DNA of 64,000 nt, from the NCBI GenBank assembly GCA_964016885.1, contig OZ024761.1, forward strand, positions 28,334,001 through 28,398,000. Direction: 5' to 3'. The stretch is from Eledone cirrhosa. Taxonomy: Eukaryota. Made by a program: the position numbers and the translations under genes. Of the stretch, positions 12,979 to 62,230 are shown piece after piece; within the stretch, counting starts at the first letter, position 1, and every line of letters begins with the position of its first letter. The notes beneath the pieces were generated by a model. It was not told where the DNA came from and searched no databases. It worked only from the letters and a program-made list of their open reading frames with translations.

Positions 12979-13430
12979 TATGCAAAAGTTTTATTTAAAA
13001 TGTTGGGTTACAACGAGTAAATATTTTATAACTGATATAAAAGCACTCAACAGGTTTTGGAGTATTTTACAATATTAAACAAATGGAAATTACATTTATA
13101 AAACCATATTTATTTCATTATATATATTTCAGGGATATCATATTAAAAATATGGTATGCCCTCTTCAGACAAAATACAATATATAGACAGTTTTATAAAT
13201 AAATTTGACATACCTTAGAGTTTACAACTTCCATTTCAAAAGTTGTTACCGTAACAACTTTTTAAATGGAAGTTGTAAACTCTAAGGTATGTCAAATTTA
13301 TTTATAAAACTGTCTATATATTGTATTTTGTCTGAAGAGGGCATACCATATTTTTAATATGATATCCCTGAAATATATATAATGAAATAAATATGGTTTT
13401 ATAAATGTAATTTCCATTTGTTTAATATCG
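12979..13430. mobile_element. Family A palindromic element with two HHRs
   Basis: Near-perfect palindrome 13072-13428 centred at 13250; HHR at 13324-13389(+) and 13111-13176(-); tail on the left arm only. Confidence 0.8.
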
Positions 13431-13606
13431 TATATATATTATATATATAAATATAATATATATTATATATATATAATATATATATATATATATATATATA
13501 TATATAATATATATATATATATATATATATATATATATATATATATTATATATATAAATATATATATATATATATATATATATATTATATATATAAATAT
13601 ATATAA

Positions 13607-13740
13607 ATATTGTTATACTTTGGGAGGGTCATGTTGCCAATAATTATTGGCAACATGACCCTCCCAAAGTATAACAATATCGGTTTCAACACACGATTTC
13701 AGATAAAGAATCTTGCTAAACAAATTCAGAAACGAAATAT
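13607..13740. mobile_element. Palindromic micro-element (truncated form of 61294-61746)
   Basis: Perfect 74-bp palindrome 13607-13680 plus a one-sided tail nearly identical to 61690-61746. Confidence 0.8.
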
Positions 13741-14737
13741 ATATATATATATTATGGCAAAATTTGAACAGGAACAAAACAGAGAGGCAGTACAATAAAT
13801 GTTTATTAATTTCACGCTCAGGAGAGTGGGGGGGTAGGTAAATATATATATATATATATATATATATATATATATATATATATATATAAAAATATATATA
13901 TATATATATATTATATATATAAATATAATATATATTATATATATATAATACACACACACATATACACGCACACATATATATATACACATCATACATCAGC
14001 TTTTAAGGAGCTGTAGTAGTCTAAGTGTGGTCCATTATACGTCTTATTTTTCAGTCTCAGCTTGCTTAATTCACTTAGCATCCCATAGAGAATATTACAC
14101 CCACAACCTATTACTGAAGACAGCTAAACTATTGATGCCTATTAACTTATCTTATTTTTCATTCAGCTCTGTTTTAACTATTAATCTAATATCTCTATTA
14201 ATATTCTTTCCTAACCTTTGTGTGTGTTTTAATCTGTCCTGTTTATTGATTTTTAATTATCTGAAAGTCTGTGTTTGGTCTAATTCTCTTATCTTTGTTT
14301 CTTTATAGAAAATAGTATTAGCAATGTTTTTTTTGTTTTTTTTTGTTTTACTCTCTCTCTAATAATTTTTAATACTTCAATTTTACTTTGGCGAAGTTTC
14401 ATAAGTAAATTTCATGTCATTTACTTTAACATATAGTGTATATTTTATATATATATATATATATATATATATATATATATACACATAAATATATACATAT
14501 ATATACATTTAGATATACATATATATATATACATATACATTTACATATATATATACAAATACATATATATACATATATATATACACAAATATATATGTGT
14601 ATATATATATATATATATATAAATACAATACATATATACACACACATATTATATATATAAAGTGAATCGCGTATTAGGAAAAACTTGGTAAAATCTGTTG
14701 AAATCTGAAGATTTATTACATAATATTACATAATATG

Positions 14738-14850
14738 GTCTTTTACACATGTTTCAATACAGTTATGCAATCACCTATGAGGGCTGAAAAATTATCCAAT
14801 ATAATCCACTGTCCTGCAATGTGTATATACATTAGCATTTCATCACTTTA
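14738..14850 (-). ncRNA. Degenerate long-stem-II hammerhead
   Basis: GTGATGA...GAAA-CATGTG-TA; flanks homologous to the 24.7-kb copy. Confidence 0.45.
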
Positions 14851-15084
14851 CATTATCTGTCAAATTCTTTTTGGGATCTATATACCATATTTGATGACAC
14901 TGTTCTTATCATGAAGATACTTATATTACACAACTCCACTGACCACGCTGGACACAATGTGTGTGTATGTGTGTGTGTGTGTGTGTGTGTGTGTGTGTGT
15001 GTGTGTGTGTATATATATATATATATATATATATATATATATATATATATATATATATATATATATATATATATATATATATAT

Positions 15085-15405
15085 GGAGGCACATGGCTTA
15101 GTGGTTAGAGCATTGGCCTTGCAATCGAAAGGTTGTGAGTTCAATTCTCAGACCGGGTGATGTGTTGTTTCCTTGAGCAAGACACTTTATTTCACATTGC
15201 TCCAGTTTACTCAGCTGTAAAAATGAGATGATAGGGACTAGGGTCCATATCATTCCACTGCAAAGTGGTCGTGGAGGTGCCACGGCAAAAACCACCCAGC
15301 ACTCACTGTAAATGAGGTTGGTGTTAAGAAGGGCATCCAGCTGTAGAAATCAAGCCAGAATCAGTTCCCGTCCCACCCTTGAATATAATGATGATGAAGA
15401 TGATG
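15085..15405 (+). mobile_element. tRNA-derived CORE-SINE (family 1)
   Basis: A box TGGCTTAGTGG, B box GTTCAATTC, CORE-like CCTTGAGCAAGACACTT..CTCAGCTGTAAAAATG, RTE-type tail. Confidence 0.85.
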
Positions 15406-15511
15406 TATATTTATATATGTATATTTATATATAGGGAGAAAAAGACGATTATTAGGAAGAAAAATATATTTTCTTCCCTTATCTATATATATGTATATAT
15501 ATATATATATG

Positions 15512-59066: not shown

Positions 59067-59209
59067 GAGGGGGTGGGGGCATATTGTCTATATGCTTCAG
59101 CTTCAGCTTGTACCCGTGGGGGCTTGGGTCTTCTGTATTATTGTGTGATGCCAGAGGTCACGGTCGTGTGTCATCGCCTTTTAGCTTGTTTGAAGCATTG
59201 TTTAATAGG

Positions 59210-59340
59210 AAACACAAATTTATATTTTGAAGACCAACACAATGCGTTAAATTTGGTAAAGTAAGATTCTTCTGTTATCTTGGCAATTTAACATTCTCCA
59301 TATGCATTGTGTTGGTCTTCAAAATATAAATTTGTGTTTC
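59210..59340. repeat. 131-bp hairpin
   Basis: GAAACACAAATTTATATTTTGAAGACCAACACAATGC is mirrored. Confidence 0.8.
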
Positions 59341-59500
59341 ATCATAATCATCATCAATTTACGTCAGCTTTTCCATTAATTTGAATATGCGTTGGTTAAT
59401 TACCAACATTTCAGTATACAGGGTAGAACACTTGATGAAGCACGCAGGTGGGTCTGTTTACTCTGGATTATATTTAAAATTAACTTTGTTTAATCATAGT

Positions 59501-59558
59501 CACTCATATATATTTCAGTGATAACCGTTATACAACAGCTATGACCTCATCAGACAGC
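59501..59558 (-). ncRNA. Hammerhead, diverged homolog of 21908-21960
   Basis: CTGATGA-GGTCATAGCTGTT...AACGGTTATCACT-GAAA-TATATA; tail homology at 59404-59475. Confidence 0.65.
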
Positions 59559-61293
59559 TAGCTAGAATTTAGCTGGGATAAACTACTCACGTGAAGTGCT
59601 TTATATTTATATATATATATAAATAAATATATATATATATATATATATATATCAAATTAAGAATACTTAAGACAGGGTTACTTTACAGACATCACAACTG
59701 GATGGTAATTATTGGCCCGTGGCATATCCTCATGATTGTATAACTACACATACATAGCCATCTAACAGGAATATTATCATGCAATAAAGCAATTATGGTG
59801 AAGTAAACCCATCTTAATTACTCTTAATTTTGTAGATGAATACCCCATCACTTCTAATAACCAACATTTAGCTGGGATAAACTACTGACGTGAAGTACTT
59901 TTGGATTACTCAGACCGGCTTATCCTCATGAAGTTATAATGTAGCTACCATGTATAAGCAACTTCTCATCTGATATATATATATATATATAGAGAGAGAG
60001 AGAGCGAGAGATAGATAGATAGATAGATATATTGAGAGAACTTATAGAAATTTGTAATACAGAATAGAAAAAAATTCACATAAAGCCAATTGCTTATTGT
60101 GAAACAATCATCCCATTAAGGATTCAAATCGGGAAATAAATATAAGATGAAACACTGTACTGAGTGAATATGGAGAAATTGTCTCATCTCTTCTATTCAA
60201 AACATTGCCTGTTATCGGGTTTTTGTTCCTTATGTTTCTTTGACACATGAAAATTCTAGATATTTTACCCTGCTATTATAATCATATGGATTGGATTTAT
60301 CAACAATGATCTGTTTTATAATATGAGTGACCCCCAACTATCTTTAAATTTCCATATATATTGGGACAATAATATCGTTTTGATTTTGTGTCAGGATCCG
60401 CATGAATTAAATCATTTGTTGTGTATATCAGGTTTTAAAGGTGTTTTCTGTCAAACCTATATGTCATTTCAATACTGTCATTTTTTTTTTTATCAGCTTT
60501 ACACATCAGGGCATTTGAGAGGACAGTTTCCTGATAAGAAGACCACATGATTTGAGATAACCAATAACAGTGACATGTGAAACAAAATTGTCTTAACGCC
60601 AGCTTGCTATTTTCACAAAAATATTTCCGCTACATAATCAGATGACCAGAAAATTTTGAGTAGTGACGCAGCAAATCGCCAGGTGCATATAAATAAATAA
60701 TTATACTCTTGTGTATACATTGAATAACATTTCTTTCATTTGTGAACTGAAACCCATTTATATATACATAAATATATACACACATACATATATATATATA
60801 TAATACACCCCGTCCCACTACCTCCACCCCATCACACCACCCCTTTCGATGTAAAGTTATGTTGGTACCACAACATCCAGTCCGAAATAAATGAGGTCGT
60901 GTAGGTGTCAGAACAAAAACAAACACACATTCCATGCTGTAATGTGGCCATGTAGGTAACATGGTAAAAACCTCCCAGTCCCATACTGTAAACGTGGATG
61001 GTGTTAGGAAGGGCATCCAGCCGTAGAAAACCCGCCAGACAGTCCTATACGAGCAAGACAACCAATCTTGCCTCAAGTGGGAAAATTCCCATCCAAACCC
61101 ATGCAAGCATGCAAGATGGACGTTAAACGATGATGATATATATATACATATACACAGACATATATATATACACACACACACATACACACATTTATGCACA
61201 CATACATTTACACACACACACACACACACCCACAGACACACACACAGGCATATATATATATATATATATATATATATATATATATATATATAT

Positions 61294-61746
61294 ATATTGT
61301 TATACTTTGGGAGGGTCATGTTGCCAATAAGAAACACATGCACAGTTGCTTTCAATTCAATTTATTATAATAAATTTATAAATTTATAAATTTCCGGTTG
61401 GTTGGTTGGTTCCATAACCAGATGGTTGTTTATATATTGTCAAAGTTCTTTCGTCACACATTCTGTGACCTCTTCAGTGACTGGGGATTCTTTTCTTTGT
61501 TTTTTGTGCCTCGCCAAAGAAAAGAATCACAAGTCACTGAAGAGGTCACAGAATGTGTGACGAAAGAAATTTGACAATATATAAACAACCATTCCTAAAT
61601 TTATAAATTTATTATAATAAATTGAAGTGAAAGCAACTGGTGCATATGTTTCTTATTGGCAACATGACCCTCCCAAAGTATAACAATATCGGTTTCAACA
61701 CACGTTTTCAGATAAAGAATCTTGCTAAACAAATTCAGAAACGAAA
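61294..61746. mobile_element. Palindromic element with two HHRs
   Basis: Inverted repeat 61294-61689; GTCA-CTGAAGA-G-GTCACA-GAATG-TGTGAC-GAAA-GAAA-TT-TGAC at 61533-61575(+), mirror 61439-61481(-). Confidence 0.82.
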
Positions 61747-61837
61747 TATATATATATATGTATATATATATATATATATATATATATATATATATATATA
61801 TATATATATATATATATATATATATATATATATGTCT

Positions 61838-62230
61838 AGGAGGTGAGTTTTATTGTAGTACAATAAAGCAATGCAGATATCGGATAAGAAGCACTCTACA
61901 GTTTGTAGGACTGGAGTATACATAATATATAAGATCAAAAGATGGTTAAATGAGTTCCATGTATTTTATTATGCACATTTCAAAAACAAATATCATCATG
62001 CAATAACATTTGTGTTTTCATCAGATAAAATAGGAGGACATGATATGAAGGTTAAAAACACTTGTTGATTTAAAACTGCACTATCCACAAGTGTTTTTAA
62101 CCTTCATATCATGTCCTCCTATTTTATCTGATGAAAACACAAATGTTATTGCATGATGATATTTGTTTTTGAAATGCGCATAATAAAATACATGGAACTC
62201 TTTTAACCATCTTTTGATCTTATATATTAT
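61838..62230. mobile_element. Family A-related palindromic element with two HHRs
   Basis: Arms 61922-62065 and 62087-62230; TATTTTAT-CTGATGA...GAAA-TGCGCA-TA-ATAAAATA at 62120-62190(+), mirror 61962-62032(-). Confidence 0.85.

Follow-up and report, generated by a model that had tools for sequence, protein, structure and literature searches.

Tailed and tailless ends are paired in inverted insertions of Penelope-like elements in Eledone cirrhosa and suggest priming at two preset RNA sites

Inverted insertions in the window and their parents

The window, our term for the whole stretch analyzed here, comprises 64,000 nt of Eledone cirrhosa DNA (GCA_964016885.1, contig OZ024761.1, 28,334,001-28,398,000), and coordinates below are window positions unless preceded by the handle of a fetched locus. 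More than 20 insertions of one kind lie within these 64 kb: inverted pairs of arms flanked by (TA)n on both sides, in which one arm continues 35-160 bases further than the other. By their motif content, these palindromes are head-to-head, 5'-truncated ends of Penelope-like elements (PLEs) in (TA)n, a known class for which the layout and two starts of reverse transcription (RT) are already published. We refer to the additional stretch as the tail, to its junction with the body as the boundary and to its outer end as the tip. Inverted repeats were located by self-comparison of the masked window together with a hairpin scan. In the window and 200 kb of neighboring DNA, this gave 26 asymmetric, 4 symmetric and 20 other inverted pairs and 86 not flanked by TA; about 8 of the 26 asymmetric pairs are low-complexity noise, and a family-D pair at 45594 was misclassed as symmetric.

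Family A is present as a tailed arm at 12981-13249 on the minus strand (tip ~12981, boundary ~13069, stem 13045-13063, hammerhead core 13127-13168, inner end at a fixed 5' site) that faces a tailless arm at 13251-13430 on the plus strand (end ATATCG/TA, hammerhead core 13332-13373). An older subfamily has left a tail-only minus-strand arm at 551-630 and a plus-strand tailless arm reaching the boundary at 640-975 (hammerhead core 879-919), both with approximate inner ends. The family B pair consists of a tailless arm at 25503-25565 (minus) and a tailed arm at 25567-25697 (plus), the latter with a hammerhead core at 25569-25591, a stem at 25635-25653 and its inner end 30 nt behind the TATA box of the parent. 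B-like pairs lie at 18568-18749 (tailless 18568-18615, minus; tailed 18620-18749, plus; hammerhead core 18621-18643, stem 18687-18705) and at 42905-43242, where a short interspersed element (SINE)-like repeat at 42984-43141 splits the tailed arm and the body occupies 43142-43242. Family C has a tailed arm at 11904-12046 (minus; stem ACTC..GAGT 11953-11976) with its tailless partner at 12048-12112 (plus), a second pair at 43608-43792 (tailless minus, tailed plus; stem 43724-43747), and a composite at 26176-26600, in which a tailless/tailless stub is followed by a both-tailed mirror with mirrored AG/CT flanks. The family D pairs lie at 45497-45689 (tailed arm minus, stem 45554-45578; tailless end ~45689) and 61837-62235 (tailed 61837-62069, minus, stem 61893-61917; tailless 62063-62235, plus; hammerhead cores in both arms).

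Family E forms pairs at 13607-13738 (tailless 13607-13643, minus; tailed 13644-13738, plus) and 61294-61745 (tailless 61294-61504, minus; tailed 61515-61745, plus; hammerhead cores 61449-61477 and 61537-61565). The family F tailless arm at 18767-19050 (minus) faces a tailed arm at 19084-19850 (plus; stem 19696-19729) split by a SINE-like repeat at ~19165-19506, and a non-overlapping F pair at 47342-47586 consists of an inverted tail (47342-47499, stem 47463-47496) abutting a forward tailless body (47500-47586). The remaining pairs belong to family G (20800-22016; tailed arm minus, stem 20889-20898, tailless end ~22013, hammerhead cores 20968-21004 on the minus and 21912-21948 on the plus strand), family H (22024-22312; tail on plus), family I (18100-18323; tailed arm minus with stem GCTC..GAGC 18140-18185, tailless arm plus ending at ~18317), family J (46986-47278; tail ~35 nt) and family K (19862-20040; tailed arm minus); H, J, and K have no RCTC stem. 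A further tailed/tailless pair at 12337-12898, its family not traced, was read by eye (inverted 141-bp arm 12337-12477, tailed arm to ~12898).

An earlier note on this DNA had placed the ends of the short arms, and its positions proved right within the few bases of TA microhomology: 13430 (A), 18767-18773 (F), 22013-22016 (G), 25503 (B), 12112 (C), ~18317-18323 (I), 45689 and 62230-62235 (D) and 61294 and 13607 (E). Independent copies do share their end base, as it had claimed (975 and 13430; 13607 and 61294; 45689 and 62232; 18769 and 47586), and an inverted tail with a forward body and no overlap is indeed found at 551-975 and 47342-47586. Two of its three solo tails stand, the plus-strand tails of family B at 20066-20130 (beginning at the boundary; stem 20071-20089) and of family D at 52688-52770 (beginning at the stem, 52689-52713); the third, at 42905-42982, is the B-like arm split by a SINE-like repeat. 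Solo tails might also be explained by hairpin excision.

Relatives were sought with body-only queries, chosen to avoid selection on the tail, and the flanks of the loci were then fetched; the family A set additionally contains loci from a tail-containing query. Because searches return the best-scoring copies, the sample is biased toward young insertions. For the family-A arms at 12981-13430, a first look gave 2019 candidates, 40 of which were scored, and at least 40 near-identical relatives were recorded. Parents were traced for families A, B, D, E, and F, and families C, G, H, I, J, and K are known as arms only. The family A parents L031 and L032 are full-length, 3.8 kb, with direct pseudo-long terminal repeats (pLTRs; unit L031:3862-7664) and a 707-aa open reading frame (ORF) in L032. 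Family-A ORFs had no match in Pfam, and the Penelope-like assignment is therefore based on motifs: a single ORF with reverse transcriptase and GIY-YIG endonuclease (EN), a partial tandem (pLTR) and an inverted 5'-truncated copy, the tail being optional in such elements.

The A protein has a CNCRDRSKC linker followed by IIY..YVG and lacks CCHH, and the F linker is CNCRSNRTC, both of the CxCX5C form. The D, F, and B ORFs, reached from the window families, resemble the A ORF in their RWR or RWT and DKT motifs (RWR/DKT in A and B, RWT/DKT in D, RWR read from DNA in F), the third RW residue differing from the K of the Hydra RWK-type motif. A C-terminal GIY-YIG without CCHH (EN region read in A, D, and F), the CxCX5C linker, DKT, an RW-type motif, a (TA)n target, an inverted 5'-truncated copy and a tail at one end are shared with the Hydra clade, whose pLTR hammerhead has a candidate counterpart in the core pattern given below, and by these motifs families A, B, D, and F match the definition of Hydra-type elements. 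According to Craig 2021 (PMC8557442), Hydra elements are usually <3 kb with tails of 30-40 nt, whereas here the A unit is 3.8 kb and the F unit ~4.2 kb, the surplus being 3' noncoding, and tails are ~65-160 nt. Its supplement lists an octopus Hydra family, Hydra-1_Obim (2507 bp, (TA)n), which is likened to the present families by description only.

The family E ORF has a CX4CxxC linker (CIDKKCITC) followed by CTEGQC..YIGET..H..H, a C-terminal GIY-YIG of the CCHH type, and a DKS motif. By motifs alone, E is Neptune-type, with Nematis as an alternative; the C-terminal GIY-YIG with CCHH, the linker, DKS, the hammerhead core and the microsatellite target all recur in the account of Neptune-type PLEs in PMC8557442, as far as its accessible text goes. 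A first guess of Naiad was dropped, since the EN is C-terminal in A, D, E, and F; the N-terminal EN, DKA and missing hammerhead of Naiad/Chlamys contrast with this C-terminal EN and with hammerhead-like cores. The core pattern CTGANGA..GAAA, a predicted feature, occurs in the A, B, D, E, and G bodies, and in F it is replaced by CCGAAGA in both arms (18824-18854 and 19605-19635). A search of L031 against Rfam returned no ribozyme for family A, only noise driven by microsatellites.

Nonautonomous family-B units of 211 nt that keep the pLTR, tail and second stem were found in L331/L332 (G000:C3:36232145-36232377) and in L325, which jumps from the 5' untranslated region to the fixed 5' site. Tandem arrays at 26928-27309 and 31900-32167, built of an 80-bp unit similar to the minus strand of the hammerhead body of family B, are possibly retrozyme-like.

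Outer ends and the pairing of arms

The census of outer ends covered distinct TA-joined ends of families A, B, D, E, and F in the fetched loci. Of the 319 ends, the body/tail boundary accounts for 148 and the tail tip for 164; the remaining 7 include at least one internal TA tract. The distribution is sharply bimodal (312/319 at boundary or tip), with the two sharp peaks that the earlier note had set as a check.

The two kinds of end are combined within insertions. Both ends could be seen in 139 two-armed insertions with one tailed and one tailless arm (A, 36; D, 19; F, 18; E, 21; B, 30; full-length, 15), whereas an independent choice of start by each arm would predict about half of the pairs to be of the same type. 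In family A, 42 two-armed groups lay off locus edges, of which 36 are tailed/tailless, 1 is both-tailed and 5 have a partner ending early, one of the latter being a splitting artifact; beyond these were 16 single-armed insertions and 2 two-armed ones touching a locus edge. All 19 pairs among the 28 family D insertions are tailed/tailless (the other 9 are single arms), as are all 18 pairs among the 26 in family F (8 are single or unresolved) and all 17 + 4 pairs in family E, in which other insertions are broken, single or out of range. In family B the figure is 30/30, from a query that favored one junction. As an out-of-sample test, 20 full-length loci were picked solely by their pLTR-ORF junction: 15 were complete and 15/15 conform, the partner arm of L347 being taken from a separate reading of that locus, and 5 were incomplete. 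The same pairing thus recurs in families of two PLE clades, in line with the claim that the rule is common to many families. Obligate pairing with one tail appears to be new. A possible template switch between families was seen at L101:6948-7518, where a short shared word connects the tail end of a family-F copy with a family-A body of like orientation.

Exceptions exist and count against two-primer insertion. Three insertions are both-tailed: L033, where the flanking DNA is mirrored too; L099, whose arms match the reference at 89% and 98.5%, belong to different subfamilies and meet in a composite center; and the window copy at 26343-26600, which adjoins the tailless/tailless stub at 26176-26245 in the composite 26176-26600. 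All three look rearranged or composite. In four A insertions (L040, L041, L042, and L046) the partner ends upstream of the boundary, and further broken or irregular copies are L197 (F) and L273, L274, and L290 (E). Tailless ends without an inverted partner, which count in favor of two primers, occur in L044, L104, L211, L325, and L332, and those in L044, L211, L325, and L332 are ends of direct tandems. L033 itself (786-9234) is an 8.4-kb inverted duplication, 99.35% identical, that mirrors a full-length A element and ~1 kb of flank and is either a later rearrangement or an assembly artifact. In L211:4640-5600, the upstream tail of a full-length F copy starts at the boundary, just after unrelated sequence that contains an internal duplication.

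The palindromes might instead arise by self-priming of antisense transcripts, as proposed in the accessible text of Arkhipova 2013 (PMC3846280), or by host fold-back repair after insertion, and the mirrored flanks of L033 and window 26343-26600 indicate that fold-back does occasionally follow insertion. These routes predict neither two base-precise, (TA)n-joined outer ends nor one tail per insertion, and flanks beyond the TA tracts were unmirrored in the conforming pairs inspected; we regard them as highly improbable sources of the palindromes.

A signal repeated at the boundary and beyond the tip

The earlier note had placed the start of one cDNA at the RNA 3' tip. Tandem parents extend beyond the tip to a second copy of the start signal, located just before the ORF, which makes the tip unlikely to be the RNA 3' end; it is probably an internal RNA site. 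The Hydra-type signal is a stem of 4 bp (RCTC..GAGY or GCAC..GTGC), located 6-9 nt downstream of each end. In family A, the boundary is followed by 6 nt and ACTC-11 nt-GAGT and the tip by GCTC-10 nt-GAGC, and the post-tip stem of family F is nearly the same as that of A, although the tail is unrelated. The shared A/F post-tip pattern matched 442 times in the genome and 0 times in the reversed control, and most of 30 inspected loci are tail-stem-ORF junctions. For family D, the post-tip stem was predicted before the junction was seen; the pattern gave 264 matches against 0 in the reversed control, with a single fixed spacing in the 100 matches listed and the ORF following. The family B junction has a compensatory variant, GCAC-TCTCT-GTGC, 9 nt after the usual tip, and 3/30 copies end 6 nt before this stem. 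Family E follows the same pairing rule with an AATATCG word in place of the RCTC stem: A/ATATCG stands at both ends, and a GCCT..AGGC stem follows the tip. A 46-bp tandem array of the family-E tip junction, with at least 12 copies among those listed, was seen at G000:C1:132947033-132947576.

Among 15 TA-flanked families of the window and its neighborhood, the first stem is exact in 8, near in 2 and absent in 5, against ~0.1 expected from shuffles; this tally leaves aside an imperfect inverted repeat at 49681-49828, which has no TA flanks and lies outside the PLE system. Post-tip stems were present in 4/4 predicted folds. A general start signal is weakened by three results: the first stem is absent in E, H, J, K, and one neighboring family (5/15); in A and B it lies outside the minimum-energy fold; and the RCTC..GAGY pattern after the B tip gave only 2 chance-like matches, one of which led to the real B junction with its variant stem. 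Recognition of the signal could take place on RNA or on DNA, between which sequence alone does not discriminate. The second signal, beyond the tip, appears to be new.

One alternative keeps two primers and makes the tip an RNA 3' end, or has read-through (UA)n anneal to the target, so that the post-tip stem would serve only translation or protein binding. Genomic tailed copies are indeed followed by (TA)n, and in A, B, D, and F the second stem immediately precedes the start codon, where a role in translation is plausible. Against this alternative, the fixed 5' site at which short tailed arms end matches the upstream pLTR, from which the RNA reads on into the ORF; the end-to-stem spacing (6-9 nt) is similar at both sites, family E repeats one word at both ends, and the nonautonomous mini-arrays L331 and L332 retain both the tail and the second stem. 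We consider this alternative distinctly unlikely.

Arm comparison, inner junctions and a candidate mechanism

The strongest competitor to two primers is a single priming event at the tip followed by fold-back and self-copying of the cDNA, with the EN cutting a DNA intermediate at the repeated signal as its recognition site and later asymmetric deletions at the center reshaping the arms. It directly explains the pairing, the shared haplotypes and the equal inner ends of two insertions described below, and the Drosophila virilis tail is needed for EN recognition of DNA in the accessible text of Frangieh 2024 (PMC11167929). A hand count of 105 pairs gave 31 in which the 5' reach of the tailless arm exceeds that of the tailed arm by >50 nt (A, 6/36; F, 8/18; D, 6/19; E, 5/17; full-length, 6/15). 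Each arm of these pairs thus has private sequence and neither is a simple copy of the other, and simple fold-back fits poorly. In the six full-length cases, a tailless arm made up of a complete unit and a pLTR faces a much shorter tailed arm, and fold-back would need deletions of up to ~3.8 kb from the tailed arm, and deletions would be needed too in the non-overlapping pairs L196, L198, L202, L158, and window 47342. It gives no account of the tailless-ended direct tandems without an inverted partner (L044, L211, L325, and L332), and RT initiation at both tail ends was observed in vitro, according to the same partial text of PMC11167929. Because asymmetric central deletion of perfect palindromes could lengthen one arm relatively and so mimic part of the asymmetry, we retain fold-back as unlikely, short of dismissing it.

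Within family A insertions, the arms differ at 92/14768 positions (0.62%), the corresponding figure for different insertions being 1.68%; for shared minor alleles there are 43 agreements and 3 disagreements, and minor haplotypes are present in both arms. This likeness fits a single RNA, a common source locus or conversion between the arms at a later time. For family A, whose arms share subfamily haplotypes, there is no support for two templates drawn from different source loci; the earlier note had held that overlapping arms need two templates or strand displacement, and the first of these is not required. In L110 and L117, both inner ends fall within 4 nt of each other, deep in the ORF, which favors a single broken RNA or fold-back in these cases.

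The inner junctions had been expected to be dispersed. Instead they peak at a fixed 5' site in each family (A, ~-190, at the A of TCACT; D, -175 to -180, with 18/53 inner ends in this one bin; B, -69, 30 nt behind TATAAAT in the parent), and only the inner ends of longer arms are scattered. Since TCACT in a pLTR was termed initiator (Inr)-like in the accessible text of Arkhipova 2013 (PMC3846280), we infer that the fixed site is a probable transcription start. Hammerhead cleavage was rejected as the cause: the A peak lies ~135 nt upstream of the predicted cleavage site, and there is no peak at that site. Family-A joins mostly show 0-7 nt of overlap or short inserts, with few longer. Upstream pLTRs of family D extend beyond the start site, to -433 and -685, which suggests templates of multi-unit or circular RNA, the latter already put forward by Cervera and de la Pena 2014.

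What the sequence shows directly is which parents the arms derive from, that the outer ends are fixed at two sites and occur in pairs, and that a signal is repeated at both ends. We think it likely that both strands of a cut TA tract would prime RT at two preset internal RNA sites, that is, two-primer target-primed reverse transcription (TPRT). A protein dimer would bind the two signals and nick both target strands, and one cDNA would start at each signal site. Synthesis of each cDNA would either reach the 5' end of the RNA, probably the transcription start, or break off earlier. Short microhomology would then serve to join the cDNAs at their 3' ends, and each would act as template for the second strand of the other. 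The simplest source of overlapping arms would be a single RNA, or several RNAs from the same source locus, together with strand displacement, an unproven step. Evenly balanced in our judgment is the more specific version, a programmed twin-TPRT in which the dimer would read two cis signals on one RNA with a 6-9 nt ruler, its subunits priming different strands, so that the tail would be the spacer between the signals and every inverted insertion would receive exactly one tail across PLE clades.

Further observations weigh against two preset priming sites. Arms of D and F are no closer to each other than different insertions are (1.9% versus 1.7% and 2.3%), although the differing sites in D are a low-complexity block and uninformative. 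The downstream pLTR is followed by (TA)n without a second signal, so that long tailed arms would need multi-unit or circular RNA. The whole evidence base is genomic sequence. Four contig runs aligned on window 17745-20580 gave repeat pile-ups only, with no joint spanning an insertion.

In L1 twin priming, both target strands prime cDNA on one RNA and the 5' part is inverted; the second start is variable, the arms do not overlap, and target-site duplications form. The window PLEs differ, with a fixed second start, mostly overlapping arms and no duplication readable inside (TA)n. Closer is the PLE protein Poseidon_Ac, for which the accessible text of Frangieh 2024 (PMC11167929) reports cleavage and extension of both target strands in vitro, two internal RT starts matching the tail ends, a requirement for RNA 3' of the starts, a predicted dimer and no strand difference in the start site. 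Two internal starts, probable here, and AT-rich targets are common to both systems, whereas Poseidon_Ac belongs to another clade and its starts lie within the ORF. In that text, the two starts are not linked within one insertion, no twin signals are described, and later integration steps are left unvalidated. One-sided PLE tails are published, the tail lying "often" at one end according to the accessible text of Craig 2021 (PMC8557442), whose account of Hydra tails contains neither the pairing rule nor a start signal. The accessible parts of PMC8969392, PMC12910113, and bioRxiv 10.64898/2026.07.22.740005 hold nothing further on either, and strict tailed/tailless pairing and the twin signal were not found in the searched literature, whose coverage ends short of key subscription papers.

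The origin of the tandem and inverted ends of PLEs and of their one-sided tail is an open question in the field. With the pairing rule and the twin signal, one model would account for the tail, for the head-to-head arrangement of the arms and for why a pLTR-ORF junction is required, and the question becomes accessible to targeted mutational tests in an assay format that already exists; Craig 2021 (PMC8557442) had called for an in vitro system for PLEs. The pairing rule also aids the annotation of a repeat class that is very abundant in this genome.

Two abundant short SINE-like repeats accompany the PLEs in the window, several lying within PLE arms or their TA flanks; the first occurs at 15094-15381, 19165-19475, 36566-36892, and 55598-56086 and the second at 8376-8530, 9278-9497, 11442-11631, 42984-43157, and 48431-48856. 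A broken non-LTR retroelement at 2924-6098 has two RVT_1 matches and two C-terminal pieces with a PD..E-type motif, which we take to resemble restriction-like endonucleases. Minisatellite arrays occupy 23940-24620 (54-bp unit), 27947-28348 (21-bp unit), 53036-54201, 56289-57303, and 58305-59067.

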